From: Sphagnum compactum | Lineage: Eukaryota | DNA: 64,000 nucleotides | Reading direction: 5' to 3' | Assembly: GCA_965153455.1 (NCBI GenBank) | Contig: OZ234493.1 | Span: 2,976,001 to 3,040,000 of the forward strand | Shown: one piece after another, positions 3,771 through 64,000 of the stretch | How the letters are laid out: each line of letters begins with the position of its first letter | Numbering within the stretch: position 1 is the stretch's first letter | Made by a program: the position numbers and the translations under genes | Notes under the pieces: generated by a model | What the model was told of the DNA's origin: nothing | What the model saw: only the letters and a program-made list of their open reading frames with translations | Database searches by the model: none

Positions 3771-4030
3771 ATTATTATTATTATTATTATTATCATCATT
3801 ATTATTATTATTATTATTAAAATTTTTTTTTTCACTTGTGGTCAGAAAGAGAGTTGGTAGCTAGGATTCTGAAGAACCAACTCTCAACAGCTGCATGATT
3901 TGTTTGCTTTGGGTGACTTCTTGTGCAAATAATAATAATTTGAATTTTTTTTCAGAACTAAGGGCTACGTATAGAGGGAGAATCATACAAACAATATAAC
4001 AAACAACCAACCAACCAACCAACCAACCAA
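3771..4030. repeat. Microsatellites (ATT)n ~3771-3820 and (CCAA)n ~4005-4030
   Basis: Read directly from the sequence. Confidence 0.9.
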
Positions 4031-28213: not shown

Positions 28214-29815
28214 GAAACCAAAAACAACCATCCTAAAATGTAGCACATATGTCAATATGATTTACATACCTGTACATTGACACAAATGTTTAGCACAAAA
28301 TGCCAAATTAATTTAACCCAAAACAAAAGGTCTCTTTGTCTGCAAATTCAATTTAAAAAACTGAAAATTTAACAGTTTAATTTTAAAGTTGAATGGTTTA
28401 ACAAAATTATAAATTACTTGTATTTTAAATATCATCACTCACACATTACATTTAGGATTGAAAGGATTAACCCTCGCTTGTGTGACCCAAGGTGGGGGGC
28501 ATTTCAAGAATAAGGGGCCCAAGATAAGGCCATAGCCAAGTCCAGCCGAGGCACTGCATTTTGAGATGTCCACAAGGAATGTCCCTTCTCCATTGGAAAG
28601 CATGAGGTGAACATGATGGGGAACCTAAAGGTAAGTGGATCACAAGGGCGTAGAAGGGTGCGGGTTGTTACATTTATTCGTATCCTTATAGGAGTAAGAT
28701 CCCTAAGGAGTACGCGTAAGATCTTCCTCTTTGTTGGGAGCAGGGACATTCAAGTACATAAGGTGCTCTCCATATAGACTTGAAAATTTCTCCAAGTGTG
28801 TAAAGTATTAGTAGAATTGTAATGCATGTGGAGGGCACCTCAACCATTGCTAGTAGTTTAGATGCAACAGAGGAGGAGGCTGCACCTTGTGTGTAAGGTT
28901 TCTCCTCTCCTAAAAAAAAGTGGAGCCATTAAAATTTTGACCAATTTTTAAGCTGGATAAGGACCTTCAAGGCGAAATTCTGGGAATTGAAGTGGGGCAG
29001 CTCATTCCTCATGCATGCTGGGGCCAGATACCCAGAACAGGCCCTCTCTCTCTCAGTCGTTATCCTACTCTTTACTATACTAGGCAAGTGTTGTTCTATA
29101 ATAACATAAAAACCTCTCTTTTTTTTTCTCTTTGTATCTTCAGAGATGTCCTTAGGAAGTTATGTGGTAGGGGAGATCTCGCTATAATATATTTGTCGTT
29201 CCCATGTTCCCATGGAAAGATTTTTTGATGGGATGGATCAGGAGGAAAGGGACAGATCAAGAAAATTGAAAAGAAAACAAGAAGGAAAGAGTGGAGGAAA
29301 GAAAAAGAAGAGTATTTGACAGCCATCGAGGTTCCCATACCCGTGTGTTCTCCATAGGTCGCGAATGCCCCTGGGCTATCAAGCTTGTGCAACCCTCCCT
29401 CAGGAGAACCCACTCATATGGGAATCTCGCATACAAACAAACAAGCAAGTTTGTCCTAGTTCAGTGTAGACTGGCTTTCCTACATCTCTGGCAGTGGTAG
29501 CGACTTTTGCAACCAAAGTAGAAAATGAGGTACCAGCAGCGACTGTAGCACTTTCCTTGGCCCAAGTAGTCAAATCTATGGACAAGTGGAGAAGCACACA
29601 CGTCAGATTGAAGCTAGTAGATGGGACACTGGATTATCCCAAATTACATGCTCACGTGCGGAGGAAGGAGATAAGAAAGAGTTCGCTAGCACACCTTGAT
29701 TGAATCCATCAGAAGCCCGTTCATAAGATTGTAAGCTTTTGTAAAGAGCTAAGTAACCTCCAGGCGGTGGTGAACAAGGACAACTTAGGCGCAGGAGACT
29801 CCTCCAGGATAGGAA

Positions 29816-43062: not shown

Positions 43063-44987
43063 AATCAAAGGTGAAAAGTAAACTCCAAGATGCCCGTTAC
43101 AAATGTAAGGCGCAAACCTAGGAAGTTCCGGAGACTAAGCAATATGTGCATATCAGAAAAAGGATAGGAATTTGAAATCAGTGTGTCAAAGTCAAAGGTG
43201 AATATATTAAAGTCCAAGGTGAACATTTTGTCGCACAGCCTGCGAAACTTGTGGCTTGATCTCTGGAATTTCTTTCTTAGGTTTATCCTTTCAGTTAAGT
43301 TTCCCTTTCAATTTTGGCTAACTGTTCTGAAGTTCCTATCCTCTTTGGATATTTGACAGTCCCTTGTAACTTGAGGCTTGTTCACAGGAATTTCATAAAT
43401 TTTCTGCTCATACTTGAAGCAGGCTATAGTGTCAGTATCCCAAAAGGATAGGAATGTTATAGACTAGTAGTATTCAACACCATAGATGACCTTCAGCCAA
43501 AATAGTTTTATTAATGGAAAGAAGACCCAAGCTCAAGGTGCCCATGATGGCAAAAGTGTAAGGTAGAAAAGCCCAATGCCGCAGGGTTTTACTGGAATAA
43601 AGCCGGTGTGAGGTGTGGCCAACTGCAGGCCTAATTCCTGTTGTATGTATGAGGATAAACCAAGGAAATTCGTGAGATGAAGCTGCAAGTTACATGAGGC
43701 TGTATGTAGTATAAGGGCCGCATTACATGAGGGTCTGATGTCCAAGGTCCAATGAAATAGAGCAATACTATTGGCTGAGAGTCAATAATTGGGCCTGTGG
43801 CCTTTAGATGAGGGTTCAAGACCAAAAATTGGCCAATTGAAGCTAAACCTACATGGCACCATTTTTGGAGGGAAAATTAATTGGTTTGGACCCAAAAAAA
43901 GGAGCTCAAAGGAGAGCTCATGATTTGGAGAATGAAGGTGGAAACTAGGGTCCAACTTGCTTCAAATGAGTCCAAATTGGTTCCTAAGACTTTGAACCCT
44001 GGACCCCATCTAGTGGGCCTACGTTTCCAGATGGGACAAGAATGTTAGAGAGGTATGTCAAAATCAAAGGCTAAAACTAAACTTAAAATGTGAACATTAG
44101 GGTGCAAAGCCCACACATGTGCGGCTTGTGATCAGAAACAAATGTCAAATTCAAGTTGCAAACCTGCAGCGAGTTGCAATTTGAGATTCCACAAAGTATT
44201 CAAACACCATAGATGGACGGCAACCAAAAAAGTCTTGTTAGTGAAAAGGAGACGCAACCTCAAGGTGCACATGATGGCAAAAGTATAAGGAAAAAAGCCC
44301 AATGCCAGGGGCTTTACTCGAATAAGGCCCACGGGAGACAGGGCCAACTGCAGGCCCAATTCAGGTAACAGCCGATGGCTGAGTGCCATACTTAGCATAG
44401 AGACCCGCTCAAAAGTTTTCTTTCTTCCAAAAAATCAGAAAAATATGCATCATTTTTCAGAAAACAGAATGCCCACTATGGCAGGCATTAAAATTTTTGG
44501 AAGACCCCACAAGCAGCAGAGGAAAAAATCTGCTCAGTAAATTCCTTCAAATTACAGTGACAAAATCTCAGCAGATCTTCAGGCCGGAGCTAACATTTAT
44601 ACCTTTATCTTCAATCCTAAGAGGTACTTATCCATATGAATTGTCTGAGGAGCAAAAGAGGCCAGTGTTCTTAAGAAGAATGTAATCAGTTTGGGTGTCC
44701 TATTCTTGTACTTTTTTTGTGTTTGTTTCTTAGGTGGAACAGGAACTTCACTTTGACCTAATGGAGTGCTGCCAAGCGAGAACAGAAAGTGCCCTAATAG
44801 TCAGGTCACTATTGGTTCACTACACCATGAACAGGATGAACAAAGGAGATTAGGTAGGGAGTGTAATCTATTCTTCAAAATAGAAGTGTTTTGTTTGTTT
44901 TGGTTCTTTGTTTTGCAAGCTATGAATGTAGAATGGGAGTGCGAGCACTTGGTTTACAGTTAGTTCTTGGTGTTGTGTGGTGTGAGG
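43063..44987 (-). repeat. Dispersed repeat copy 2, inverted relative to 16041-17657, with ~330 extra bp (about 44632-44962)
   Basis: Reverse-complement match; the terminal gttcttggtgttgtgtggtgtgag matches 16041-16064. Confidence 0.9.
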
Positions 44988-46068: not shown

Positions 46069-47961
46069 TATGTTGTTTTCTTTGAGATTAAGCTAGTTTT
46101 CAATAAAAGCTTTCCCTTAAATACCTAATTCAAGGATTTAATCCTCACTTGCTTAGCTGATTTAATGTTTATCCACCCTAATTTCTTCCAAAATTTCAAT
46201 GAACTAAAAACATAAGTGATTGATTAAATCTCCCCTTGAATGATAATTTCATAATTGTTCTTTGTGTGAATGAAAAGAGGGATCTTAGGTGTACTTATCA
46301 AGGTGGGATTGTGACCTAAACGGAATCCTAAACTTAAAAAAGGTTAAATTTTCTGTCCTAAACTGGCGGTTGGTGGTGCGATGTGACTGTTCATGAGCAC
46401 ACTCATCATGTGCTGCTCAAAATAGTGTGTTTGTTTGCTTTGTACAAAGGTTTCAGGTTGTGCATCCATGGAGGAAAGAGAATGTGGTTGCCTTGTTTCT
46501 CCTGATTTCAAGGATGAGCTTGCTAGTTCTATTGTTTTGGTTTTTGTTCTTCATGATGCCTTGTGGGATCAAGGTTCTGATTGGTGGACTAGATCGTCGA
46601 AGGATGATGAGCTGCTACTATTTGAAGGAGGTGGTTGGTTTTTGGAAGACAAAAGACAACCTAAGTATTTTATGGCTAAATTATGTTTGTAGCAGAGGAT
46701 AGAACTGTGATAGAACCGGTGTAAGTTGAACTGCATGGAGATGAATGCTCTATGTGCTAATGTTCTCCGCAATTTTGTTGCGTTGCAGATACAGAATTCT
46801 ACGTAGTAAGTTTGTTATAGGCTGGTGGTGAAAATGCTGTAGAATATTAGAGGATTTGTGAGTGACTTCCTTCATGGCGTTGTATCAAGTGAGATGAAAT
46901 TGGGGAGTTGGGATGAGTGGAAGGGAGTGCCTTGGTTGGCGCTCTGAGTTTGGGATCTGCAACCAGTCCACTGATTCGGGGTTTGGACAAAAATTATTGA
47001 ATGTTCGGTTCTTCAGGGATTGGGATGATGCTGGGATTCTTTCCTTGTGAAAACTTCGGGGATTCAATGAGTGAGAGTTTGAAGCAATGCCATAATGTAG
47101 TCGGTTGATGCTCAATGAGAATGATTCCAGAATGTTCAGATTAACCTAAGCCTTAAGGTTCAAAAGTAGATATTGTGTAGTTTAGTTTCAGGAATAGATT
47201 TGTGTGTCAGTAAGTATGGACCATGGTTCAAGTAACTGAAAGAAAGCGTTGTGATTCCAATTTACCCCCTCTTTTTTGGCCACAGGATCCTTCTGGAATG
47301 TATTTCCAGGAGGAATAACATTCATATGCCCTCCAGATTAGGAAATTTATTTAAGAGCTTCACGCTAACTAGAAGCCAATAGCAGTCGATAACAAGCCAG
47401 TTTGTCCTAGTGTAGACTTTTAGAGCCACTAAAATGAGCACTCACATCCAATTTAATTTAGTGGCTGGGATAATATTCCAATATCCACAATTACATGCAT
47501 AAATGCAGCTGAGAGATAAACAGCTGGTGCAAGTTTCACATATCAATTACCAGCACAACTGGATCAGGAGAGACCAATTTCCCCATAGAGCAAACAGTTT
47601 ATGCAAGTAGGGCCACCCCGCGGTAGGGAGCTGATGGGCGCTGCAACTTGTATGTCGTTTTCGTTAGGAATCCAGACTCGAGTAGATCTGAGTTCATACT
47701 TAGGGAGTTTTAAGCCACCCACACACATAACATTACAATTGAGTGCCTCATGAAAGTCCTGGCCAGCTTGAGGTTTATGAACCCAATTTGATTTGTACTA
47801 AAGTAGACTAGTCATGAATTTGTAGCAGGGACACTAGCAAAATTGCTCCAGGGTGAAAGGGTCAACTGAATTTGACATTGGTCACAGGAATTGAAAGCTT
47901 TTATGAAGCGCAGCTAAGTAATCAGGCAGCGGCAGTGGAGACTCCAGGCTAAGGATAGGAA

Positions 47962-48477
47962 ATGGGGTCTCTGAGAGCTGGAGCAGTTTTAGTAGCTATA
48001 TTGGATGTTGTGGTCATCTTGCAGGCTTGCCACTCCTGCATGGGATTAAGGCAAGTCCTTTCCACTGGACAGAGACATGCTCATGCGGGCTCATCAACAT
48101 TGCAAAATAGCTGGAAGTCTACACGATCCCAGATCAGTCTGAGACATCCACCGAAGATTTGCCAGCTGACATTAAGGTACATAACGAAGTAGTCGCTGGT
48201 TTTATTAGGAGCGTGCAGAAATGGATATGAATCTGGTTGTTAATTGTCGAATGTCTCATGCAGATCGAGCCTTCATGTCCTTTTGGCTTTTGCAGGTCTT
48301 GAGAACACCAATGATTCACAGAGACCATCCAGATTCGCCATTGCCGAAGGCTTACAACACTAGCTCGTATTCTGAAAGGGTAGAGGCAGTAGCGCAAAAG
48401 GAGTTTGGCTCGTGGGGATTACTTACACTCTCGTCAATTGATGAGCTCCAGTGCAGGAGGAATCAAAAGCCAGGTGA
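47962..48477 (+). pseudogene. 5' fragment of an aspartic protease paralogue (exon 1 frameshifted, exon 2 from 48296 truncated by Copia)
   Basis: VVVILQACHSCMGLRQVLS and VLRTPMIHRDHPDSP match the 29816 gene; homology stops at aagccaggtga|TGGACAAAG. Confidence 0.9.
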
Positions 48478-48896
48478 TGGACAAAGAAAAGGAATCACAC
48501 TACAAAGCTTAATCTTGCTAAAAACTATACTAAAATGGATTAGTGACTCAAAACTAGTTCCTATAGAGAGATGGATCAATGATTCTGAGATGATCTAATG
48601 GGAACTTGCGATGTGCTTATATGCACATGGAGGATCGCTCAAAGATAAGGCTAGTAACTGCTAGTAGGTGGAAATAGTTGCCATGCAACAAGGGTAATCC
48701 AGAATAAAGTGCACATGGGTGTTTAATTAATGCATTAATGAAAGTGTAACGAATTCAATTCGGTGCACATGCCACCATTTCTGATTTATTGTGATAGCGT
48801 GGAAATGAATGAGACTACTAAAATTAACTCGAACGCTAATTTGTCGCTACTGTTTAGTGCTCCCATTAAAGTAGCTTGACTACATGCTACCTACAC
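48478..48896 (-). mobile_element. Probable 3' LTR of the minus-strand Copia element
   Basis: Removing the Gypsy insertion joins this segment to the Copia RNase H end: AAAATGAGAG|TGTAGG...TATAA...TGTCCA (PPT-like tract, TG...CA). Confidence 0.55.
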
Positions 48897-49235
48897 TGTC
48901 ATGACCATATGTGTGTTAGCTATAACATATAGTGTGATATGGTAGCGAGTAGTGCCTACTTAGGCTTTCTAGGTTTAGGGTTAGAGGAGAGTGGTTGTTC
49001 TGGTAGGACCCACCCTCATGTTGTGAGTGGGGGTATAAAGTGTGTGAGAGGGCTCAAAGAACATAGTTCTTTGAGTTGAACCTAGAGCGTTGGGAGTAGT
49101 TGGAATTAGTGGAGCTTTGAGCTATGGTGTCCCGTTAGCATCAACTTAGATTCTCTGAGTGGAGTGGGCTTGGCTTGACTATATGTTTTTGCATCACGAG
49201 TTTTATGATAGTAGATCTTTCTCGTGACGTTTTCA
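48897..49235 (+). repeat. LTR segment A1 (333 bp + TTTTCA), with TATA box at 49034
   Basis: Matches 58955-59293 with roughly 22 mismatches by eye; TGTCATGA...TC(A/G)TGAC(A/G). Confidence 0.92.
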
Positions 49236-49251
49236 CTCAAAGAACTATGTT
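49235..49251 (+). promoter_or_regulatory. Primer-binding site complementary to the element's own LTR (49060-49076); putative self-priming PBS
   Basis: ACTCAAAGAACTATGTT is the exact reverse complement of AACATAGTTCTTTGAGT; there is no TGG tRNA-type PBS. Confidence 0.75.
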
Positions 49252-50231
49252 TTTTGGGAGTAGTTAAACCGTGGGGGTTTTGTGATCTCACTCTCTGGTT
49301 GTGTGGTCGAATTGGGAGTGGGTGGTGTCAAAAGGAGCGCCTTGGCGAGAGCTTTTCAACGCACCAAAGATTGTTGGATTTCGTTGAACGGATCAAAAGT
49401 TATGATCATTTGAAGTTGCTAGTTTAGGGTTTGACAGTTTTTGTTGACGGTTTACCAGCGACGTTAATTTCTCAGATAAGTGGAAATTTCCTTGAAGAAA
49501 GTTGCTGAAAATTGGTAGGAGTGTAGCTAGAGAGCCGATCTACAATCTAGCAAAGACAGATTGTGTTTTCATTGAGCGGTTTATGCGTTATGTTTGTTTT
49601 TGTGGTGATGGTTTTTTCTGGTTTGTGCACACCTAGTGCGGAAGCGTTGTCGGATTTTTAACTAAATAACTAGGGAAGATCATGTGCTGCAATTTTGTAA
49701 AGTTGTTGCTTGAGGGCTGAATTGCATTTGGGAATTGTTTGGGATTTTTTTGGTGGAGCCAATTGAGAGTATTGACCTTCGAAAGATCTCAAGTTTGTGT
49801 AGATTTATGCCCAGGTTTCTTTCAACGGTTTTTCGTAGGTCATATCTTGGCACACAAACCTTCTTTTCAGTTGAGTTTTGGAGGGAAGGAAAATCTAGTT
49901 GTCCTCTACATTCTGGTCGAAGTAAATTGGCATTTGGTGTAGGAACGGTGGAGATATGGTTGTTTGAATGTTCGCAACCCAATTTCGCAAGTTTTGGTTA
50001 TGGCGGATTAGGGATTTCGCCGGAAATTGAGCTTTTGGCTAGTGGGGAGCACATTTTTCGACTTGTTGTGGTGGGCCGGTTGGATGAGTTGAGCCGCTAC
50101 TCAACTAAGTGGTTGAGTTGAGTATTCATTTCTGGTAGCAAATCGAGCATAAGGTCGACGATATTTAGTGGTGATTCAATTTGGGTACTGGGTTTGGTGA
50201 TTGGGTCATCACGGAGTAGTTTGGTGGTCCT

Positions 50232-52630
50232 ATGGGGGACCATGGTGGAGATGGTGGAGTTAAATGTAGTGGGTTGAGGTATCGACTACCTTCCCCCACA
50301 TCATCGGTTGTTGAAGAGGATGAAGTTATCGTGAATAACAAGTCTTCCATATTACCGTCTAGTATTGCGGCCCCATTGATTTGGGATATGGACAGGGGTT
50401 CTGGGGCCATGAAGGGCCCCCAACGTTACTCAGGTGCAGTGGGCACCATCGAGTTGGAGGACTTCATTCAGGAGTTTGATTCTTGGTGTGATATGCAGAT
50501 GTTACATAACGCCAGATTGTTCTCACCCTTCTTGGCATGGAAGGGATTGTTTCAGCACTTGGAGGGTCCTCCGATGGATGATTATCATGAGTTTCGGAGA
50601 GATCATGCTACTGAGATTGAGGAGTGGAGGCAGCATTGGTCTCCATCCTATGTATCTATTACTCACGGTGGTGTTGTTAGTGGTGATACTACTACACCGT
50701 CTACTCCTAGTACGAGCACACAGGTTGTTCCCCCACCTCCGTTTAACCCTATCACGGAGTTCTTTTTGAGGCTGAAGAAGAACTACCAGGGGGTGAAGAC
50801 GGAGAAGTTGAAGAGTCTTCAGGAATTTGAGCGGAAGACTAGTGAGAGTCTTCACGAGGCATACACTCGTATGCGACGGTTGATTGTAGTTACCCAGGGG
50901 GTGACGGAGGCTCAAGCAGTCCAATTTTGGTATGGGATTCTGGACAAGGAGTTGCGACGGAGAGCACGCGATGTGACTCTCATGAGTGACGATTCTCCCA
51001 CATTGGCCCATGTGTTTGCTTTGTCTGAGAAGATAGAGCTTAACATGGTGGAGGAGAGGGTGGTGACATCTGGATTCAATAGGGATATAGTTACTACTTC
51101 TCGTGGACAACAGTCCACCTCACAACCTCATACTGGTGGAGGTGGGAGTCGTGGAGGTCAGGTACGACCTCAATCAGGTTCTGGAGGGACGAGTGCACAA
51201 AGACCGTTGCCTTCATTCGCTAGTCAACAGCAGGGACAATCTTGTTGGACATGTGGTGGTGCTCATATTTGGAGGGATTGTCCACAGGAGAGTGGTGGGC
51301 GGACTTTGGCTGATGGATTTTAATCTGCACAAGTTCAATGTGATAACTGTGGCCGGGTCGGCCACCCTCGTGAACATTGTTTTGACCTTTACCCATAATT
51401 GAGATTAGGTCGTGGTGGAGCGACTCAAAGAGGTCGTGGTGGTAGAGGTGGTAAAGGTGGTGGGGGTGGTAGAGGTACACCGACGGTTAGGGCACCTCTC
51501 GTGATCACTCCTCCCCCTACGACAGAGGCAGCTATGGCTGCTAGGATTAAGCAGTTGGAGCAAAGGTTTGCTACCATGGCAAGTTTCCAGCATCGATCAC
51601 ATTCAAGAAGTGAGGCTCCCACATCTTATGGGGGAGATGATCTCTTTTATATGGCTAGTGTAGCACAAATTGAGGCGTCCGTTGCAGTGACGAGAAGCGT
51701 CACTCGAGCCTCGGAGCCACGTGGGGCAACTATGGAGTTGGATCCACAGAGGGATGAAGCTGGTAGACAGGCCAGGCTTCCCCAATCATTCTTGTTGTCT
51801 GAAGTGGTTAGGACTCCTTCCATGGTTCCTACACCGCCTATTGAGCCAACAGTGGGGCCAACAGCATCGACATCACATGTAGTGGACACGGATGTATCAT
51901 CGAGTGCAGTCTCGCGGATGGTGACTTCAATGTTGGGATCCCCAACATTTTCGGCTAATGATTTGATGGCGTCAGGAGTTGACTTAACTCGTGTATTTCG
52001 ACTAGCAGCCATATTGTGTGAACGTGGGAGTGTTGTTGCTATAAGTGCCGAGGTGTGTGAGGGTGTTGATGTGGGGCAACTTGTGGCGGGGGATGTTGTT
52101 GTGGAGCAACTCGTGGTATCAGGTGTGGATAGTCCTTGGCAGGCGACGGCGGCTAAGATGGATGCATTACCAGCTCGACCGGCCATTGATCGTGAGAGGC
52201 TTACACCTGGTGTATGTATGTTGGATAATCGAAGTGGTATTTTCTGGTTGGTGAGTCCTACGGGCCAGGTGTATAGACCAGATCGGGTTTTGTTGGATTT
52301 TGGTGCCGAACCCTTGATGTTGGGGAAGGCAGCATGTATTGGTTTGGGTATTCGGAGGTCAGAGCTTGAGTCGTGCCCATTCCAAATTCAGACATCACTT
52401 GGTGGAGCTAGTGATAGGTCTAACTTCATGACACGTGAGAAATTGTCGGTGCAAATGAAACCTGATCATGTGACAGATAGTTCTAGGTTGGGAGTGACTG
52501 CTGTTATTACAACAGCTGAGTCGTATGATGTACTAGTTGGAGGTGTCGTGTTGTATCCAATGGGTTTTCAGATGGATTATTAGACAGAGACAACGACTTA
52601 TCGACCCGGTTGGCAGTCTGGGGATGGACG
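50232..52630 (+). pseudogene. Gag (two zinc knuckles, RGG-rich) plus retropepsin-like protease of the Gypsy element
   Basis: One frame broken by single stops. Motifs: QxxxESLxxxxxR-like gag motif, CWTCGGAHIWRDC, CDNCGRVGHPREHC (51339-51380), VLLDFGA...YDVLVG. Confidence 0.8.
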
Positions 52631-53019
52631 GATGAGCCAGGTGCGTGTGAGATTTATTTCTGGGGTTCGACCAGGAGGGTCTCCCCCAGAGGTGTTGGCA
52701 TCAGTTCCTGGTTTTAGTGGAGTGGTCACTTGGCCAGGTGACTTGTTGGAGGGCAACATTTCAACCATTGACACTTCGGTTTACGAGGATATAGAGGAGG
52801 TTTCTAGTTTTGTTGCAGTAGTGTCCTCCTCATTGGATGTTCCACTTTGGTGTTCGAATGGGGTGTTACGGCAGGATGTCGATCGTTTGGTATCACAAGC
52901 TTGGCGTGAGGCTTTTGTGCATGTGGAGGAGGAGGAGGTTCCACAACGGACTCCTATTTCTGGTCCTGTTGGGTTGTCTCCATTGGATACTACACCCATT
53001 GCGTGGGAATATCCTTCCG

Positions 53020-53975
53020 AGGGTATTTACGTGTTGGATCTATTTGGTGGGATCAGCACTGGTTTGGCAACAGTGCTTCAAGCAAGTATTCTAGTTCGGA
53101 AGTACCTTTACGTGGAGATAAATGAGACCGCGAGGAGGGTTTCATCGCGCCATCTTGCATTATGATGCAGTGATATCCTGAGTTGTTGCCAAGGTCGATT
53201 ATTCGAGGATATCAGCGGGCTTTGCCATCAAACATTGCATTGTTGGGGGCTCAAGACCTTGCGAGAGTTGGTCCTATTAATTTGGTGATTGCTAGATGGC
53301 CATGCTAGGGTCATACTCGGGCTGGTCGTGGTGAGGGATTACGTGACCCTCGATCTCGTATGTTTTGGGAGATGTTGCGCCATCTTCAGACACATCAGGC
53401 ACGTGTTCCCACGTACATTCTGGAGAATGTACCTTTGTTGGGTGATACTAGGTCTCATGTGATGGCAAGTGTACACCAAATCCGGTCTTGGATTGGACCA
53501 GCGGTTTTATTGGATGCAGCGAGGGTTGGTTCGCGTGCTCATCGTCCCCGATTGTCGTGGACGAACTTGTTGCCGAGGGAGGTGTTGAAACGGGCATATG
53601 AGACAATACCACAATCTTCTCACCTCATAGTGGATAGTATCTTAGATATCGGGCGACGTTCTCAGGTGGTGAAAGTTGTTGGTAGGTCACCCATGGCAGT
53701 GGTGAACCGAATGGGACAGCCTAGGATGGCGTTACCCACATTTGTTAGTTTTCCAGCATCACATGCCTGTAGAGAGGGTGGTCCCGGGCTTGTATGGGAT
53801 AGTTGTTTGCAGCAATTGGTGGAGCCCAACGCCGATGAAAGAGAGCGTGCAATGGGGTTTCCTACAGGAGTGACATTTGTCCCTTCTATTTCCGAGGCTT
53901 CACGTCGACAAGTGTTGGGTCAAGCTATGGACCTGAATTGTTTGACTTGGATTGTTAGCCTTGGTATGGCTGAGT
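53020..53975 (+). pseudogene. DNMT3-like DNA (cytosine-5) methyltransferase domain inside pol
   Basis: Motif I VLDLFGGISTG (53031), II YLYVEIN, IV LVIARWPC*G (Cys at 53303), VI ILENV, VIII AHRPRLSWTNL, IX ERERAMGFP, X RRQVLGQAMD; one frameshift (~53162) and two stops. Confidence 0.9.
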
Positions 53976-54299
53976 AGCGTCGGCTCTAAGCCACATTTGT
54001 AGTAGTTACACCTCTTGTGAGCTCGCTGTCCACTGTGACGGTAGAAGCATCGACTAGGGGCGAGGAGAGTTGTACTTTTCATCCTTGGAGTACATGGGAT
54101 GTGTTGGGAGAGCATGTGAAGGTTGTGGCCCATGCTGTTGGAAGAGTTTGTTGCTCCATTGGTGTTCCATTGGGTGACTTGGAGGAGCGTGTGGCTATTC
54201 CCAAGGTTTTTGCATAGCAACCTATGGCGTCGTCCTCTTCCTTTAATGTGTCTATCGAAGAGACTTGGGAGCCTTTGATGGGGCCCAAGCTAACAAGAG

Positions 54300-56726
54300 G
54301 AGAGAGGCGACGGTTGATGCAATTCCTAAGAGCTTACAGGAGTTGTTTTGCCTTTAGTATGAAAGAGTTGGGTGCTTTGATTGAACCTGGTATACGGATT
54401 GAGTTGGCTAGTGACACGCCAATCTTCCGTCGTCCTTATAGATATAGTGATATGGAGAGGGTCCTGATTCGGAGTCGGACGTTTTTCTATTGGAGGTTGG
54501 ATTAGTGGAATTGTTGCATGGTGAGTATGCATCAGCCACTGTCATGCCTACCAAAAAGGATGTACATGGCAACTACACGAATAGGCGGATGTGTGGAGAC
54601 TAACGTCTTATCAATCGGCAGACTAAGTCCGATAAGTATGCCATGCCTACACCTGAAGAAATCTTTAATGTTGTGGGACATGCGAAGGTTTTTAGTACAC
54701 TTGATCTTCGAGCAGGGTACCATCAATTGCCGATTTGAGAGGAGGACAAGGCCAAGACCGCATTTTGGGGCGTCAACTCTCACGGCAAGGATTGTTTGTA
54801 TCAGTGGAAGTTCTTACCCTTTGGGTTGAAAAACGCGCCTGCCGAGTTTCAACGTGTGATGGATAGGATCTTAGCAGGGTTGGATTTTTCCAGTGTTATA
54901 TCGATGATATTGTGTAGTGATACCGTGGAAGAGCACCAAATTCATCTACAAATTGTGTTTGAGCGGCTGAAGGCTCATGGTCTTCGTCTACATCCTGGGA
55001 AGTGTAAGTTCTTCCAAGAGAGTGTGGAGTATCTGGGTCATGTGATCTACCCAGGTGGTTTGGGAATGCAACAAGCCAAGGTGGAGGCTATTGCACATAT
55101 TCTGCATCCCACGGATGTGAGTAGGGTTCGTGTTTTCATGGGATTGACGAACTACTATCGCAGGTATGTCAAAGGCTTTAGTGCGATGGCAAAGCCTTTG
55201 AACATGTTGAAGTTGGATCAGGAGTGGCAGTGGGGTGATGAGCAGGAGCGAGCTTTTGTGGAGCTCAAGGCTAGGTTAGTTGCAGCTCCCATCTTGAGGA
55301 GGCCTATTAGGGGGCGTTCATTCCAGCTACACACTGATTGGAGTATGTTGGGACTTGGAGCAGTGTTGACACAGTGTGATGATGAAGGGAAGCAGTTTGT
55401 GGTGGGCCGGTTGGACGAATTGAGCCGCTACTCAGCTAGGTGGTTGAGTTGAGTATTCGTTTCTGGTAGCAAATCGGGCACGAGGTCGACGGTATTTAGT
55501 GGTGATTCAATTTGGGTACTGGGTTTGGTGATTGGGTCATCACGGAGTAGTTTGGTGGTCTTATGGGGGACCATGGTGGAGATGGTGGAATTACACGTAG
55601 TGGGTTGAGGTATCGACTACCTTCCCCCACATCATCGGTTGTTGAAGAGGATGAGGTTATTTGAGTGAAAATGTCATGAGAAAGATCTACTATCATAAAA
55701 CTCGTGATGCAAACACATACAGTCAAGCCAAGCCCACTCCACCCAGAGAATCTAGGCCGATGCTAACGGGACACCATAGCTCGAAGCTCCACTAACTCCT
55801 ATTCCCAACACTCTAGGCTCAACTCAAAGAACTATGTTCTTTGAGCCCTCTCTCACACTTTATAGCCCCACTCACAACATGAGGGTGGGTCTTACCAGAA
55901 GAGCCACTCTCCTCTAACCCTAAACCTAGAAACCCTAAGTAGGCACTACTCGCTACCATAGCACACTATATGTTATAGCTAACACACATATGGTCATGAC
56001 AGCTGTCGTGCGAATACATATCGTCATACAACATACATCGCTGACATACCATACTCACATACACACACAAACACATAACATGGACGAAAGCATACACAAA
56101 TACATGTGTACCACATGTGATGGCAAAGCCTTTGAACATGTTGTTGAAGTTGGATCAGGAATGGCAGTGGGGTGATGAGCAGGAGCGAACTCTTGTGGAG
56201 CTCAAGGCTAGGTTAGTTGCAGCTCCCATCTTGAGGAGGCCTATTAGGGGGCGTCCATTCAAGCTACACACTGATTGGAGTCTGTTGGGACTTGGAGCGG
56301 TGTTGACACAGTGTGATGATGAAGGGAAGGAGTTTGTGGTGGCCTATGCAAGTCGTTCGAACAATGTAGCGAAGTCACGTTATAGTTCTTACAAGGGAGA
56401 GTGTTTGGCAGCGGTGTGGGCTGTTGCACACTTCAGGTGTTACTTGTTTGGCACACAGTTTACCCTTGTCATTGATCACCAGCCGCTCAAGTGGTTGATG
56501 GAGTCCGATAAACTTACAGGAAAGCTTGCACGGTGGGCTCTCATCTTACAGGAGTATGACTTCCAGGTGGTGCATAAACCTGGAGTTACAAACCTTGATG
56601 CCGATGGGTTGAGTCGGAACCCATACACTAGCCAGGAAGATAATACTGGAGCTAGATGGCATGGCGAGGTTGATGAGGAGATGGTGCCAGGTTGGCATGC
56701 ATCGGCCTTTTTGTGCTTGTTGGGTG
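54300..56726 (+). pseudogene. Reverse transcriptase and RNase H of the Gypsy element, interrupted by an internal rearrangement (55397-56115)
   Basis: RRPYR, YAMP, FSTLDLRAGYHQ, LPFGLKNAPAEFQR, YIDD (54897), KCKF..YLGH, LHTDWS..GLGAVLTQ, AYASR, DHQPL, ADGLSR. Confidence 0.93.
55666..56115 (-). repeat. Inverted complete LTR (B-GC-A-TTTTCA), followed on its own strand by the first bases of the PBS
   Basis: Reverse complement of 58841-59293; begins exactly at TGTGG. Confidence 0.9.
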
Positions 56727-57134
56727 ATCTAATTAAGTTTGATCACATCACAATATGCAAACACCCTAATCAAAAGTTTGATATGTCATGACGAGCATCT
56801 AATCCAAATGCATTTAAGAAAGCTTTTGTCCAAAGTCCTACATATTCCAATGTGCATGACCAAAATCATGGTTCATCTTTTCCATCTTCTTTTTCTCTCT
56901 TTTGGAAACATGATCTTTTGATTTGATTGTTAGTAATGGAGCTTGCGGAGCTTTGGGCACCATTTGAGATTGTTAGCTTGAAATCTAAAACCTTTGTAAA
57001 AAAAGCTATAGGCAATGGATCTTGCAACAACAAGCTCTCTCACAACTACCACAAGTTGTTTTGAAGCAAAAACAATTATTTAAGACCTTGCATTTGTTGC
57101 AAAACAACACTGCAAACCCCTAAACCCAACCCCA
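56727..57134. other. AT-rich foreign insertion between RNase H and integrase
   Basis: Abrupt composition shift that breaks the pol frame; ends in aaacccctaaacccaacccc. Confidence 0.6.
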
Positions 57135-57425
57135 GGACTCTAGTATGGAGGGCCACGTGACATCTTACTCTAGTCAAAGGGTAGATGGCCAGTTTTCAGA
57201 TCCTGAGGTTGGGGATGGTAGCATCGGTCACCATGATGTTCATGATGATAAATAGTGTTGGAGTTTTTACAAACCAGTATGGTGTCAGGCATGGTGAGTG
57301 CTAAGGAGAGAGACCGTGTTCTCCAACGAGCTAAGAGGTATCGGTTGGAGGGGACACATATACTCCGAGTGTGGGAGGATGGTAGGGTACGGACTGTACC
57401 ACATCCAGACTAGAGAAGGCGTATT

Positions 57426-58685
57426 GTGCGGCATGCCCATGAGGAGTTGGGGCATTTTGGAGTAAAGCGGACATATAGCTTACTCCTAGGTCAGTATTGG
57501 TGGCGCGGTATGCACACCGATGTGCAACGATTAGTGTCACATTGCATGGTTTGTGATAGGGTGAGGGCATCGTTCAATGCCCCTACACCACAGTTACACC
57601 CCTTGCCTATTATGGGGTTGGGTTATCGCTGGAGTTTGGACTTTGCGAGACCATTACCATTGACGGTACGGCACAACAAATATGTGTTGGTGATGGTGGA
57701 GCACTTCTCCAAGTGGATTGAGTTGGTGCCATCCCCTGACAAATCCAGCAAGGGAGTAGCGTATGCATTCCTTGATAGGTTGCTTAGTCATTTTGGTGCA
57801 CCAGCTGAAGTGTTGACCGATCAAGGTACGAAGTTTCAGGGTGAGTTTCAGGTCTTGTGTGACAAGGCGTTGATTGATCACCGAACCACGTCTCGAGATC
57901 ATCCAGAGGCAGATGGTTTAGCTGAGCGTGTGGTACAAACGGTGAAAAGGGCATTACGCAAATATGGCTTGCAGAAAGGCCACCTAGGGGATTGGGATAT
58001 TCAATCACCATGGTTGGCCATGGGATATCGATTCAATCGTCAGGCATCCTTGGCTTCCTTCTCACCTTATTTTCTATTGTACGGCCGAGATCCAGACTTG
58101 CCAACAACGATTCGTCGTGAGTCTAGTGAGGTGGTGAACCTTGATGACCCGAAAATGTGGTTGAGGGTGTGTTCTCAACGTGCAGAGCTCTTTCGAAGAG
58201 TTATGCCAGCAGCGTTTGAAAACCTTGCCATTGCTCAACATAGGGATACATTGCGATATGCGATTATCCGGGGTGGAGGTTATGGACCATCGATCCGTGG
58301 GTTCCATGTGGGGGACTATGTCTATTTGCAGCAGACTGCACCAACGACATTGGATGTAACGGCAGGCCGCACTATCTTACGAGTGCGAGAGGTGTTAGCT
58401 TCTGGAGTTCTCATGTTGGAGGGTCACGATGGTGTTGTTTGGAAGGACCATGTGTGTAATTGTGCGCCATGTCACCTCCCAAATGTGGATGGTACAGTTG
58501 ACCCAAGTTTGGTAATGGTACGGGTCGGCTTGAGGTGTATGTTATGTGGGTCTAAAGGTGGAGCAGCCCATATGTTGGTGTGTGATAGATGTTCTAGGGG
58601 TTGGCACATGGCATGCATGACTCCACCTATGGATGTTGTTCCCGTTGGACGGTGGGTTTGTCGTCGTTGTACTTTGGAGGGGTAG
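57426..58685 (+). CDS. Gypsy DDE integrase (HHCC, core, SH3-like) with a C-terminal PHD finger (58536-58670); open fragment of a dead polyprotein
   Basis: HEELGHFG...CMVC; WSLDF, LTDQG, GLAER; FHVGDYVYL; CMLC...CDRC...WHMAC...WVCRRC (C4HC3). Confidence 0.9.
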   Translation: MRHAHEELGHFGVKRTYSLLLGQYWWRGMHTDVQRLVSHCMVCDRVRASFNAPTPQLHPLPIMGLGYRWSLDFARPLPLTVRHNKYVLVMVEHFSKWIELVPSPDKSSKGVAYAFLDRLLSHFGAPAEVLTDQGTKFQGEFQVLCDKALIDHRTTSRDHPEADGLAERVVQTVKRALRKYGLQKGHLGDWDIQSPWLAMGYRFNRQASLASFSPYFLLYGRDPDLPTTIRRESSEVVNLDDPKMWLRVCSQRAELFRRVMPAAFENLAIAQHRDTLRYAIIRGGGYGPSIRGFHVGDYVYLQQTAPTTLDVTAGRTILRVREVLASGVLMLEGHDGVVWKDHVCNCAPCHLPNVDGTVDPSLVMVRVGLRCMLCGSKGGAAHMLVCDRCSRGWHMACMTPPMDVVPVGRWVCRRCTLEG

Positions 58686-58840
58686 ATGACATGGTATGGA
58701 TTACAGATGGGCGACTAACGATGGGGCAACATAGCACCCGGCCTTTTGATTCGTGCACCCGCGAAGGTGTATAACATGTAGAAGATGTATAGGGCTACCT
58801 GGAAGTTAGAGGGACCTAACCACCAGCTAGGGGGGCAAGT

Positions 58841-59407
58841 TGTGGTACACATGTATTTGTGTATGCTCTCGTCCATGTTATGTGTTTATGTGTGTATGTG
58901 AGTATGGTATGTCAGCGATGTATGTTGTATGACGATATGTATTCGCACGACAGCTGTCATGACCATATGTGTGTTAGCTATAACATATAGTGTGCTATGG
59001 TAGCAAGTAGTGCCTACTTAGGGTTTCTAGGTTTAGGGTTAGAGGAGAGTGGCTCTTATGGTAGGACCCACCCTTATGTTGTGAATGGGGGTATAAAGTG
59101 TGAGAGAGGGCTCAAAGAACATAGTTCTTTGAGTTGAGCCTAGAGCGTTGGGAGTAATTAGAATTAGTGGAGCTTCGAGCTATGGTGTCCCGTTAGCATC
59201 GGCCTAGATTCTCTGGGTGGAGTGGGCTTGGCTTGACTTTATGTGTTTGCATCACGAGTTTTATGAAAGTAGATCTTTCTCATGACATTTTCAGTTGTGG
59301 TACACATGTATTTGTGTATGCTCTCGTCCATGTTATGTGTTTGTGTGTGTATGTGAGTATGGTATGTCAACGATGTATGTTGTATGACGATATGTATTCG
59401 CACGATA
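58841..59407 (+). repeat. 3' repeats: PPT, B1 (58841-58952), GC, A2 (58955-59293), GT, B2 (59296-59407)
   Basis: Polypurine tract AGGGGGGCAA-GT just before TGTGGTACAC; B is repeated after A. Confidence 0.9.
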
Positions 59408-59410
59408 ACA

Positions 59411-62400
59411 CTCTCATTTTGTCAAGGTACTCTTGAAGAATCAAGCCTAGGAGTTGTTACATGCACTTGAAGTGCTTTGGTGCAAGAACAGGCTTTGTTA
59501 GGGCATCAGTGTCCATGTCTAATGTGGAACAATTTTGAAAAGAGACTTCTTTTGCATTCATCATCTCCCTGACAAAGTGGTGTTGTATGTCCATATGTTT
59601 AGTTCGCTTGTGGTGAACAAGGTTTTTGATTAATGCTAGATTTCCTTGGTTGTCATTAAAGGTTATTGTAGCATCCTTTGTGGAAAACCCAACTCCTATA
59701 GCAACTTTCTAAGCCACATGGCTTCTTTAGTGGCAAATGAAGCTACCATGTATTATGTTTTCATCGATGAGAGGGCCACAATTGGTTGCTTCTTACTCAC
59801 CCAATTTACAACTCCCAGTACAAATGCAAACCAAGTTGTGGACTTCCTAAAGTCTAAATCTCCACCCCAATATGATTCTGAAAAACCCTTGAAGGTTATT
59901 CCCTCTTCATCTCCTCAATATTGTAACCACAAATCTTGCGTTCTTTGAAGGTATTGAAAGATTCTCTTGGCAGCTACCTAGTGTTTTCTAAAGGGGTCTA
60001 ACATGAATTGACTAATTATGCTCATTGATTTAGAAAAATATGGTTTAGTAGCAACCATTACATACATAAGGTTACCCACAAGTTCCTTGTATGGCATGTC
60101 CATCATCTCTTAGATTTCCTATAAGGTTTTTGGTGTAATATTTTTGCCCAGTTTACTAATGGTTTCTAAAAGCGTCACTATTACAAAAGTGGAGTGTAAT
60201 TCACTAGCCTAAATCACTATTGGACCTTAAAAATGAAATAAGCTCACTGCACTTTAGTGATTTCACCTTGGTTAAAGTTATTTCATATCACATTGTGTTT
60301 CATTATTGATTGACATTATTCACTATTATAATTTACTGTGATAAATAAATTTATTTTTATGTTATTGTTTTGAATACCTTGTGTTATTTTATGATATACC
60401 TTATATTATTTTAAGTTATTTTAGTTATTCTAACTTATACTCTAACTTATTATAAGTTATTATAGGCTATAATAAATTATTATACCTTAAACTATTATAC
60501 ATTATTATACTTTAAGGTATCCTAGTTAGTTTATTATAAAAATTTTACTTCAAATTATTTTAAATTAAATTATTCAACTAACCTTAGGCTATACCTTAAA
60601 TTATTTTATTTTAAATTAATATATGTTATTTCAAATTATAATTTATGTTATTATAAAGTATTTTATCCTAAGTATAACAATTTCAAATAATCTAAAATAT
60701 AATATAATGACCTAAGGTAAAATAACCAAAAATAACCACCAATATAATAACCATCAATAAAATATATAAGCACTAATAAAATAGTCACTAATAGCCACTA
60801 ATAGAATAACCAACAATAGCTGCAAAACCAATAGTCATAAATAGTTTATGTTAATATAGCCTAAAATAACCAATAATAGCATAAGGTGAAAAAACTTTCA
60901 ATAGCAAAAAACAACCAACAATAACTCTACATAGCCAAAAATAGCCTAAGATGAAATAGCTTAGAATAGCCAAAAATAACTTGGAATAACTGCAAATAAC
61001 CTAAAGTGAAATAGCCTATAATAGCAAAAAATAACATCAAAAGTAACTTACAATATTCAGATATAATCTAAGGTTTAATAGCTTAAAATAGTCCAAAATA
61101 ACATAAAATAACCAAAAATAACTAAAGGTGAAATAACTAAAAATAATTAAAAATAACTAATAATAACCATAAACAGTTGTGAGATAACTTAGAATAATGA
61201 AAAGTAACCCTAAAATAGTTGAAAGTAGCTTAACATAGGTAGTATTATTATATTAGCAAAAACATTTATCCATTTATTAAACATTTTGTTTTTCAAAAAA
61301 AAATTCATTGAAATGTTATTGAATAATGATTTTCACAAAAAAAAATTGTGCAAATGATTTTACATTTTTAAAAGGAAATAAATGTAATTATGTACATTAT
61401 TGAAAAAAAAATTAAATTAAACTTTAATCATTTCATTTGGACAAAATCTAAATAAGATATGAATTTTCAAAGTTTATGTTTTTGTAATGTTTAAAATGAA
61501 ATATTTGATAAATAGAACGCAGCATAACACATTATCACAATAATTGTGGTGCCTTGATTGTAGGGGTGTTTGCCTTCATCCTAGAGGTCAAAAGATCAAA
61601 CCTCACAAATGGTGTATTTATGGTCAATAATGATAAGTTGACCAAATATTTTCCTATGTAGTTCCCTAAAGTAGGTGCCTAGTTAAATTGATTACATGGC
61701 CTATGTACCTAGGCTAAATTTTAAACCTAGCATAGGTAATGACACATGTCAATAATTCATAGGATGAAAATCATAAAAATATCAATAATATTAAATATAA
61801 CACTAAGTATTAAATCATTTAAATTTAATTGATATCCATGCTACTTAGTTAATTAACTAGCAAGTAAAATGGTTTGATAAATTTGTATTTCACTAGGTGT
61901 TAGTGGACTAATTCACTGTCTTTGACAACTAGTCTTCATCCAATTGGGGGTTGACCAATTTCACCCTGGTAAAAATGTCCAAATTCGCTCAAAATCTAAT
62001 GAAACCTAAAATGAACTAAAATGCATTTTGTTGTAGAGTGTAGACATAGGTTTACAACTTTCCATGCCGAACCACTTAAAAATTTTGTTGATGTATTTTG
62101 GCTGACCAAGCTTAATGGTTCTACGCTACTAATCTCTCGTTACTTAGATCCCAAGAAAAAATGCAAGATCCCCTAAGTCTTTCATTTTAAACTCCTGTGA
62201 CAGAAATGTTTTCACTCTTTCAACTGTTGCGATCTCCTAGTTAAAAATCAATAAGTCATCTATGTATAATGCTAAGAATGATGACTCTTGGTTTTTCAAG
62301 TAATAAATACTAGGATTTGTTTGACATTTTTTGAATCCTAGATTGAAAAGGAAAAAATCCATTGTTTCACTCCTTTTGGTTTTTTCTAGAACAAAATCTT

Positions 62401-64000
62401 TTTGTGTGAAGTAATGCCTACTTCTTCATTGAAGACCAGATCAACTTGGAGGTCTCCTTGTTGACCAATTTGTACATTTTAAAGTTCTAGTCATAACCTA
62501 CAAGGATGTATCTTATGCTCTTTGAATCCAATTTCGTTTTGGTCTAACTGGGTCTATGAATGTAAGGGTCACAACCAAAAACTCATAAATAATTCACTAT
62601 AGGTTTTCTCCCATTCCAAAGTTTTTCAAATGTTATTCCTTGAATTGCTTTGTGGGGAGATCCAGCCTTTAAATATGTGGTCATTACAACTTTTGCCTAG
62701 TATATCGGTTCCAAATTGCATTGGTGAAACATGCAGTGTGTTATTTCAATAATTGTGTGATTTAGTCGTTTGGCCATTCCATTTTTTTGGGGTGTGTATG
62801 GTGTTGATTTAATGCTAAATTTTGTTCAATTTCAAAAATGCTTGGAATTCTTACGACAAGAATTCACCTTTGTTTTCACTTCTCAAGATCTTGATCTTTT
62901 TTCCAGTCTATCTTTCTATGAGCACCTTGAACTCTTGGAATTTTGAAAAGCATTCTCCCTTGCTCTCCAAAATGTAAATGAAATATTTATGAAAGTAATC
63001 ATCTATGAAAGATACAAAGTATCTTGTTCTGCCAAAAGATGGAGTTTTAGCTAGTGCCCAAACATTGGTGTGAATTAATTCCAACATTTTTTTTGCACGC
63101 AACCTTCCTTCTTTCAAGGAATGTTTCCCTGTGTTGCTTGCCTTAAACACACCTTTGACAAATATTGAGCTTTGCTCCCTTGTCAATGTTAATGCCTTCC
63201 ACGAGGTTACTTTCTGACAACATCTTCACATTTTCTACACCTAGATGCCCCAATCGCTCATGCCATAGCTAGATATTATTTGATTCCTTAGAAATAATTA
63301 AACCTTTGACTATCTCTGTTGACTTTGTCTCACATTGTAGTCAATATAAACCATTTTCTTTCAAACCAAGTCCAATTACTTTCTTTTGTTTGTTCATGGT
63401 GACACACCTTTTTCCTCCAAATTCAAAAACATGGCCCAATGAAGTTTGCTTTTGTTACAGAGAAAAGTTTTGTTGCCAATCTAGGGACGTGCAAGACATT
63501 AGAAAGGACAACGTCAACAATTTCATTTCCTCCCACTAACATGGATACCTTTATATCTCCTCTACCAATAGCTTTTTAAGCAAAATTATCGCCCATGTAG
63601 ATTTCGATGGGTGAAATTGATTCATAATTTTTGAACCAGATTCGTTCATGAAATAGATGTGCAAATGGATTAAAATCTATGTTCCACACTATGGATCCAC
63701 ATGAAACAGACAAAGAAAACACAAAGGCTTCCTAGTATCTTCATTTCCTACTTCAACTATATTATTTTGCTCTCCTCTCCTCTTGGAATCAGCTGTTTTC
63801 TTTTTACTTTCCCTTGCCCAATGCCCAACTTCCTTATAGTAGTTACAAATGTCTCTTGACTTGTTTCTACTAACTTAGGACTCTAACCCTTTTTGAGTTA
63901 ATACAAGTGCAGTTTTGGTCAACAACTTAGAGGACCTAGACTTCTCTTTTCTCATCAATTCCTCATTCAACAAGCTAGTTGCTATGACCTCCCAAGTAAA
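59411..64000 (-). mobile_element. Degenerate Ty1/Copia retrotransposon (gag zinc knuckle, pre-integrase, integrase, RT, RNase H), running off the window edge
   Basis: CNYYKEVGHWARE (~63830), LWHERLGHL (~63255), LELIHTNVW...YFVSFIDDY, HKRTKHMDIQHHFVRE...DALTKP. Confidence 0.9.
60175..62120. mobile_element. AT-rich non-autonomous insertion(s) in the Copia RT
   Basis: Interrupts the RT. Starts CACTATTACAAAA. Arrays of TTATTTT-type units flip to AAAATAA-type units near 60700. Confidence 0.5.

Follow-up and report, generated by a model that had tools for sequence, protein, structure and literature searches.

The window analysed here, a stretch of 64,000 nucleotides from Sphagnum compactum (contig OZ234493.1), contains a Ty3/gypsy-type retrotransposon of 10.5 kb (48897-59407), at whose 3' end lies an integrase open reading frame (ORF) closing with a PHD finger. 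Sequence comparison and structural modelling support, with moderate confidence, the reading that this finger is a conserved C-terminal integrase module of relatives of the retrotransposon KnitGypsy-Dnmt3, and that it tethers the integrase to chromatin unmethylated at lysine 4 of histone H3 (H3K4).

In the proposed mechanism, the PHD finger would bind the unmodified N-terminal tail of histone H3 as an H3K4me0-type reader and would tether the complex of integrase and cDNA to nucleosomes without H3K4 methylation. New copies would then enter silent or gene-poor chromatin while avoiding active promoters, a role parallel to the job of the chromodomain in chromoviruses. Histone binding, the mark that is read and the targeting are all steps that we infer from sequence and models. 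That the PHD finger is functional in the family is argued from its deep conservation and from a relative that appears intact (locus L022).

A canonical PHD finger and its conservation in the family

The initial annotation had described a canonical C4HC3 PHD finger, with the conserved tryptophan before the last cysteine pair, as the end of the integrase ORF, and both the pattern and the ORF were confirmed. The ORF runs from stop to stop over 423 aa, with the finger at residues 375-419. Its spacing, C-x2-C-x11-C-x2-C-x4-H-x2-C-x12-W-x-C-x2-C, is of the C4HC3 type, all ligands are intact, the Trp stands two residues ahead of the final Cys pair, and a TAG stop lies four codons past the last PHD Cys (T-L-E-G-stop). 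Pfam places Integrase_H2C2 at residues 1-52 (58.7 bits), rve at residues 71-164 (49.6 bits) and the PHD family PF00628 at residues 375-419, with 38.4 bits against a cut-off of 24 and E 1.3e-9. When the last 68 residues of the integrase are scored alone, PF00628 reaches 43.6 bits (E 2.9e-11), a score that chance cannot reasonably account for. Residues 284-423 were modelled with AlphaFold2 from an input alignment of 39 rows of stored proteins. The model has a mean pLDDT of 76.8 (82-90 in the PHD part) and predicts an SH3-like barrel of five strands with a PHD fold after it; in a fold search, the modelled PHD superposes on solved PHD fingers at 0.5-1.3 Å across 45-51 residues. The segment is confirmed as a genuine canonical PHD finger and not a chance motif, its assignment as a zinc-binding module being a prediction from fold and ligand pattern. 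In the model it occupies the place of the chromodomain in chromoviruses, after the SH3-like C-terminal domain of the integrase, and no match to the chromodomain family PF00385 was obtained with Pfam in the window integrase ORF or in nine relatives scanned.

The finger is widely shared. A word-indexed search returned 401 homologues near the length of the query and 364 longer ones, including proteins from the liverworts Calypogeia fissa, Marchantia polymorpha and Riccia sorocarpa, from Sphagnum fallax and Klebsormidium nitens, and from the chlorophytes Haematococcus, Pleodorina, Volvox and Tetrabaena. Among the matches listed, precomputed annotation assigns PF00628 to 119 of 120 longer homologues. 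Of 240 stored homologue proteins, 226 match the C-terminal 123 residues of the window integrase, and 198 of these span the PHD. The possibility that other copies lack the finger or fail to conserve it, considered in the initial annotation, is answered by 184 of the 198 keeping all eight zinc ligands. The exceptions are mostly Cys to Tyr, the commonest ligand loss among the homologues, which is expected of decayed, methylated copies. Beyond the ligands, the site of Trp414 holds W in 174 homologues and F in 23, Asp391, which follows Cys3, is kept in 190, and the P-x-G-x-W motif before Cys7 retains its P in 192, its G in 170 and its W in 174. Across a divergence sample of 90 members at most 60% identical to the window protein, mean pairwise identity is 0.50 for the PHD, 0.56 for the rve core, 0.40 for the SH3-like domain and 0.48 overall.

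A search that makes no use of the finger gives the same picture. A full HMMER scan with a PHD-less integrase query yielded 789 representative clusters (50% identity) with E up to 1e-30; the best 150 of these representatives held 115 new proteins, 92 of them with the C4HC3 pattern, and the remaining 23 were cut off or degenerate, with no alternative C-terminal domain in any. In a midpoint-rooted FastTree phylogeny of 166 integrases, computed with the PHD excluded, two deep clades of 54 and 112 sequences separate, and the PHD is found in both. It can be regarded as a conserved trait of a large, old family of the green lineage. In RNA libraries labelled as moss or plant metagenomes, contigs reach 25-29 of 30 bins, the PHD among them, a coverage to which DNA carry-over may contribute.

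Proposed histone-tail reading, landing sites and the paired methyltransferase

The closest solved structures point to readers of the histone H3 tail. The best sequence match in the PDB is CHD4 PHD1/2 (E 9.8e-14), and further matches include PHF12, KMT2C/D, DPF2/3, KDM5A/B PHD1, PHF21A (BHC80), KAT6A, ATXR5, WSTF, BAZ2A, UHRF1 and AIRE. The modelled PHD lies within 0.5-0.9 Å of DPF2/DPF3 at 42-44% identity, with MOZ also among the best fold matches, and within about 1.1-1.3 Å of BAZ2A/B, ATXR5 and BHC80. For the UHRF1 PHD, the free structure 3zvz is matched at 1.4 Å and the entry with an unmodified H3 tail at only 9.5 Å root-mean-square deviation. Titles among the fold matches name BAZ2A with an unmodified H3K4 peptide, UHRF1 with the unmodified H3 N-terminal tail and ATXR5 with histone H3; the reader-class labels used here come in part from such PDB entry titles. 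Classical cage readers of H3K4me3 such as BPTF, ING and TAF3 are absent from the 60 listed sequence matches, and the positions of Asp391 and of P-x-G-x-W correspond to H3-tail contacts in the H3-tail readers. The whole model of SH3-like domain plus PHD also resembles the Tudor-PHD cassettes of PHF1 and UHRF1, because the SH3-like barrel of the integrase, a generic integrase fold, resembles a Tudor domain.

The surroundings of the copies fit gene-poor landing sites. Among 18 distinct flanks of related copies, GC content is 0.28-0.43 against about 0.47-0.50 in the element, and the 44 flank ORFs of at least 80 aa gave Pfam matches only at two loci, both to genes of other transposons: in L010 a retrotransposon's gag and protease, and in L079 a PIF1 helicase. 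None matched a cellular gene family. The claim that the window copy had landed inside another transposable element holds on one side: the sequence 3' of the insertion is a minus-strand, degenerate Ty1/copia element (59460-63874), with Pol_BBD PF22936 at 63426-63575 (32.3 bits) and a weak RVT_2 at 62240-62425, and its last pol ORF stops at 59460, some 50 bp short of the insertion point. The 5' flank yielded no recognisable feature. The copia remnant comprises a CCHC knuckle, Pol_BBD and integrase-like and RVT_2-like ORF pieces, and is interrupted at 60688-61191 by a very AT-rich sequence (GC about 0.25) with loose repeats of 10-80 nt units.

Several observations weigh against a finger that aims the integrase at H3K4-unmethylated chromatin. 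Among 18-21 close copies of the window's subfamily, at about 90% DNA identity, pairwise dN/dS rises from 0.29 in the integrase core through 0.53 in the SH3-like domain to 0.84 in the PHD core. Changes shared by at least two copies number 17 non-synonymous to 5 synonymous in the PHD, a ratio of 0.93, with a corresponding ratio of 0.34 in the integrase core and 0.46-0.64 in frame-shifted controls. Purifying selection on the PHD was not detected by dN/dS among these copies, in a test that is weak and noisy because it covers only 45 codons and the copies decayed after insertion. Between Cys2 and Cys3, the streptophyte clade, the window included, has a neutral or basic loop (GSKGGAAHM), and many chlorophyte members have an acidic one; several H3K4me0 readers use acidic residues in this loop, and the ligand of the PHD may differ between the clades. 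The resemblance to H3-tail readers is one of sequence and fold only, and the AT-rich, gene-free flanks, a descriptive result without a genomic background, may mirror the host genome or a survival bias.

It is possible, at a fairly low probability, that the PHD finger is a general chromatin or protein anchor with neither mark specificity nor landing bias; it might raise integration efficiency as a nucleosome tether, contact a host factor, keep the protein in the nucleus or serve multimerisation as a zinc module. Such an anchor would be in keeping with conservation that is strong only at the zinc ligands and a few core residues while the loops vary between clades, with the undetected constraint in the close subfamily, and with the Tudor-PHD likeness, which arises mostly from the generic SH3 fold. 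It agrees less well with the closest solved relatives, which are all histone H3 tail binders, and with the retention of Asp391 and P-x-G-x-W, positions of H3-tail contact in such readers. An insertion bias published for a PHD-bearing Gypsy element of Chlamydomonas (PMC9940879, in the text available) also speaks for tethering with a landing preference.

A second domain accompanies the finger. The initial annotation had placed a DNA-methyl writer in the same element, and a region resembling a DNA methyltransferase (DNMT) is present, with PF00145 at only 19.1 bits in the window and at 51.1 bits in L022; its DNMT3 label follows the literature and a likeness of motifs. In the window, Pfam gave no match for the first DNMT ORF, a frame shift separates motif I from motif IV, and the latter is ARWPC*, the Gln of PCQ having given way to a stop (53306-53308). 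The co-occurrence of PHD and DNMT proposed for examination was found to be common. Sequence of 3.3 kb or more ahead of the integrase is available at 32 loci, a few of which are the same place in different samples; a DNMT lies upstream of the integrase-PHD in 28 of them, in the order DNMT, reverse transcriptase (RT), integrase (IN), PHD; the loci without that order are L002, L015, L077 and L078.

The most complete example is L022, with an integrase 67% identical to that of the window and a seemingly intact element at 976-8226 of its contig. Its first ORF (1369 aa) encodes gag, protease and DNMT, with GWPCQG and ENV intact, and its second (1047 aa) encodes RT, RNase H, integrase and PHD, the finger lying 13 residues from the stop. 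The two ORFs share a frame and are split by a single stop codon (5083-5085), which may be read through or may be a single mutation. With the DNMT part of the window as a blastp query, about 64 of the 240 stored homologues match, and motifs I, IV, VI, VIII, IX and X can be aligned, together with a common region between VIII and IX. The motifs are those shown by alignment; a regular-expression screen found all three of its motifs in 0 of 38. The pairing of a reader and a writer in one element is real and general in the family.

The placement of the DNMT follows the two integrase clades. In proteins of the streptophyte type (P0131, L022) it precedes the RT, and in those of the chlorophyte type (P0147-P0240) it lies between RNase H and integrase, where it scores 13-20 bits against a Pfam cut-off of 22 and goes unannotated for that reason. 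Chlorophyte-type proteins also continue for about 330 residues beyond the PHD, and many chlorophyte members have GWECQ or GWSCE in place of GWPCQ. The clade of 54 (support 0.90) contains the window, Klebsormidium and Calypogeia and all four DNMT-before-RT architectures, with none of the other type; the clade of 112 contains all nine named chlorophyte proteins, every one of the 35 RT-DNMT-IN architectures and 25 DNMT-IN fragments, as well as four proteins with RT and IN-PHD and no detectable DNMT between them. The finger is always on the integrase while the DNMT moves, and on this ground the PHD is argued to serve integration first. This clade-specific placement may be less known.

An arrangement in which the PHD serves the element's own DNMT, reading H3K4me0 and directing or activating the enzyme like the ADD domain of animal DNMT3 so as to methylate a new copy or the DNA around it, with integration targeting secondary, appears doubtful. 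The frequent co-occurrence just described and the intact state of both domains in L022 would suit it, as would the finding of de Mendoza et al. (2018) that the retrotransposon DNMTs assayed methylate CG de novo (PMC5890265, in the text available). The claim that the finger might steer the methyltransferase is nonetheless weakened by a PHD fixed on the integrase while the DNMT takes two different places. About 1000 residues, including enzymes processed by the protease, separate the two domains in the window type; in L022 an in-frame stop splits the DNMT ORF from the ORF of RT, RNase H, integrase and PHD; and the four chlorophyte-clade proteins keep IN-PHD with no detectable DNMT ahead of it. 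That the PHD is a chance motif or decayed relic, functionless in the family, is very improbable and is rejected at family level: the dead window copy and near-neutral PHD change among close copies are in its favour, against which stand the Pfam E-value, the intact ligands, conservation from chlorophytes to bryophytes, the mean PHD identity among divergent members and the finger of intact L022, so that it is true only of the window copy's inactivity.

The window element: parts, repeats and decay

The window copy is a dead, old and broken insertion without present function, as shown by the stop in the DNMT PCQ motif, the frame-broken RT and two private insertions. Its pol order, RVT_1, RT_RNaseH, Integrase_H2C2 and rve, is the Ty3/gypsy order with a DDE integrase. 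The coordinates of its parts are collected in Table 1. Pfam gave weak aspartyl-protease matches in the L022 segment equivalent to the window ORF in protease position.

Table 1. Parts of the PHD-bearing Ty3/gypsy-type element, in window coordinates.
Feature	Position	Strand	Evidence or remark
Target-site duplication ACAC, 5' copy	48893-48896	+	Flank ends ACAC ahead of TGTCATG; same 4 bases after 3' end
Terminal repeat part A1	48897-49235	+	Starts TG; 93% identical to A2 (58955-59293)
Candidate self-priming primer-binding site, 17 nt	49235-49251	+	Exact reverse complement of 49060-49076 in A1
Gag-like ORF, 367 aa	50220-51323	+	CCHC-like motif C-terminal; position and colinearity with relatives; no Pfam match
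ORF in protease position	51399-52583	+	Position; no Pfam match
DNMT3-like C5 cytosine methyltransferase, broken	52584-53977	+	Pfam, motif alignment
Reverse transcriptase, several frames	54218-55405	+	RVT_1 65.2 bits for 54739-55452
Private rearrangement in RT	55397-56115	+	Repeat comparison; missing from all colinear relatives
RT end and RNase H	56116-56726	+	RT_RNaseH 118 bits for 56045-56791; colinearity
Private AT-rich non-coding insertion, about 409 bp	56727-57134	+	Not in relatives
Integrase ORF: H2C2 zinc domain, DDE core, SH3-like C-terminal domain, linker, PHD, stop	57414-58685	+	Pfam, AlphaFold2 model
PHD finger, C375 to C419	58536-58670	+	Pfam, ligand pattern, fold model
Polypurine tract AGGGGGGCAAG	58829-58839	+	Directly before B1; conserved in relatives
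Repeat part B1	58840-58952	+	Ends GACA; repeat comparison
Repeat part A2	58955-59293	+	Repeat comparison
Repeat part B2 and element 3' end	59295-59407	+	Ends CGATA here; CGACA in relatives
Target-site duplication ACAC, 3' copy	59408-59411	+	Matches 5' copy

Private lesions were defined against colinear copies on metagenome contigs at 88-93% DNA identity (L023, L079, L001, L025 and others). The rearranged block of 720 bp in the RT is a direct copy of 50066-50329, the 5' untranslated region and gag start, followed by the whole inverted B+A repeat (58841-59293), and it is flanked by a 227-bp duplication (55182-55405 = 56116-56342); a nested copy and a template switch were considered as its origin and neither was adopted. 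The AT-rich insertion separates RNase H from integrase and may be a small non-autonomous element. Compared with other copies in sequencing runs X1 and X15-X17, window 57136-59405 differs mostly by transitions; in run X1 these fall at 64 places as G>A, 44 as C>T, 36 as A>G and 14 as T>C. The transition excess and the Cys-to-Tyr ligand losses fit decay by deamination of methylated cytosine.

The terminal repeats have an unusual layout. The family ends are 5'-TGTCATG...CGACA-3', that is TG...CA, and target duplications of 4 bp were found in all four copies with both ends (ACAC in the window, CATA in L023, TACA in L001 and ACTA in L017). Duplications of this length reflect integrase chemistry and rule out a tyrosine recombinase; a DIRS-like element, which would have such a recombinase and no duplication, was rejected on the DDE integrase and the 4-bp duplications. 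With the internal region written as int, the layout A-int-B-A-B occurs at six distinct loci (the window, L010/L016, L012, L014, L023 and L079) and A-int-B at about 12, and no BA-int-BA, with two identical flanking long terminal repeats (LTRs) as in the standard LTR definition, was seen among the integrated copies compared. A TATAAA lies inside A1 at 49034-49039, and the A1 partner site of the 17-nt stretch lies 25-30 nt downstream of it. The 17-nt pairing is also present in L025, with shorter exact stretches in L079 and L017/L018, and the stretch would serve self-priming as in elements of the Tf1/sushi type. A polypurine tract in the form ctaggggggcgag precedes B1 in more than 20 related copies.

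Given the polypurine tract before B1 and the 17-nt stretch after A1, reverse transcription should give an LTR of composition B+A. The joint of B1 and A2, GACA-gc-TGTC, is a 10-nt palindrome, the joint of A2 and B2 differs from copy to copy, and loose contig ends in a DNA run accumulate at 58952/58955 and at 59293. This suggests that 1-LTR and 2-LTR circles were opened at the palindrome and then inserted; recombination between B repeats could be another source of A-int-B. The permuted LTR layout with 4-bp duplications may be less known.

These features can be joined with the chromatin-tethering module in a broader proposal, which we consider unlikely as a whole. A reader-writer kit would extend across a Viridiplantae Gypsy clade, with the PHD picking silent, H3K4-unmethylated chromatin and a DNMT3-like enzyme methylating the copy or its neighbourhood; in many chlorophyte members the PCQ of this enzyme is ECQ or SCE and its place in the polyprotein is another. 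Circular instead of linear cDNA, opened by the integrase at the internal palindrome GACA-gc-TGTC, would integrate to give A-int-B-A-B and A-int-B with 4-bp duplications.

Two repeat pairs elsewhere in the window are probably further transposon copies: an inverted pair of 1.6 kb, 92% identical and 25 kb apart (16068-17657 and 43063-44629), and a direct pair of 0.5 kb at 84% (29806-30346 and 47952-48478).

Comparison with known systems

The window itself is ordinary, holding one more decayed transposon copy beside another transposon. The novelty implied at first was overstated, since the literature already has both Gypsy-DNMT3 elements and green-algal Gypsy elements with PHD fingers, and the window copy is non-functional. 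The interest lies in the family, which is large, ranges from chlorophytes to bryophytes, has at least one intact member (L022) and, on the literature text available, may include a Chlamydomonas element active in the laboratory; these properties make the targeting idea directly testable.

KnitGypsy-Dnmt3, a Gypsy-type element with a DNMT3-like domain in its polyprotein, was described from K. nitens by de Mendoza et al. (2018, PMC5890265), who in the text available ascribe the acquisition of the DNMT to the K. nitens lineage. The legend of Fig. 4 of that paper describes an element with Gypsy domains whose repeats are laid out as in a DIRS retrotransposon. This split, DIRS-like layout matches the A...B-A-B of the window family, and the DNMT3-like domain within a Gypsy polyprotein is likewise shared, being broken in the window and intact in L022; the difference is that the window element comes from a bryophyte, its best named hits being in Calypogeia, Marchantia and Sphagnum. 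Kinship with the published K. nitens element is possible: integrase-PHD proteins of that species are 53-54% identical to that of the window and one falls in the window's clade. The main text of PMC5890265, figures and supplements excluded, has no occurrence of PHD, and no mention of target duplications was seen there; the available text of the REXdb paper (PMC6317226) mentions neither PHD nor methyltransferase. A preprint (10.64898/2026.05.21.726589) refers, in its available part, to 'streptophytes (Gypsy-DNMT3)' and to elements joining methyltransferases with chromodomains. A search of running text, without figures or supplements, found no description of Gypsy-DNMT3 elements whose integrase ends in a PHD.

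In Chlamydomonas, PHD is a common accessory domain of transposons (PMC8557442, in the text available). Gypsy-7a_cRei carries a PHD in Gag-Pol beside the integrase (Craig et al. 2022, PMC9940879); according to the sections available, its intergenic insertions are 2.6 times the chance expectation, and the authors suggest targeting that avoids harmful insertions. The same source cites REM1 (Perez-Alegre et al. 2005) as a PHD-bearing Chlamydomonas Gypsy. Volvocine algae and Haematococcus have homologues of the window integrase-PHD, and Gypsy-7a_cRei may belong to the same clade. It differs in that no DNMT is annotated for it in the text available, whereas the chlorophyte relatives found here carry a DNMT-like domain.

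The ADD domain of animal DNMT3A, DNMT3B and DNMT3L offers a parallel in which a PHD-type reader of H3K4me0 and a DNMT3-type methyltransferase belong to one genetic unit. There the reader adjoins the catalytic domain, whereas here a plain single PHD sits on the integrase, far from the DNMT and in L022 on a separate ORF. In arthropods, CopiaMBD has captured a host epigenetic reader, with a proposed role in guiding integration (de Mendoza et al. 2019, PMC6673714, in the text available); that element differs in belonging to the Copia superfamily and in using an MBD domain with methylated CpG as its ligand.

Chromoviruses are Ty3/gypsy elements whose integrase ends in a chromodomain (Gao et al. 2008, cited in PMC6673714). 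They likewise have a histone-reader domain behind the SH3-like domain of the integrase, and its role is presumed to be targeting. The description of the PHD as standing in place of a chromodomain holds only for its position after the SH3-like domain. In a sister-group search the best 150 representatives were all members of the PHD clade or truncated, and an Atlas search with the PHD clusters removed gave scores of at most 0.87; an rve+Chromo cluster at 0.83 among them offers no more than a lead. The readers themselves differ, being a chromodomain there and a PHD here, and the likely ligand of the PHD is an unmodified H3 tail and not H3K9me. If the PHD does aim integration, it would be a second independent case of landing-site choice by a histone reader in a retrotransposon, and one in which, unlike in chromoviruses, the element would read the absence of an active mark and bring a DNA methyltransferase with it.

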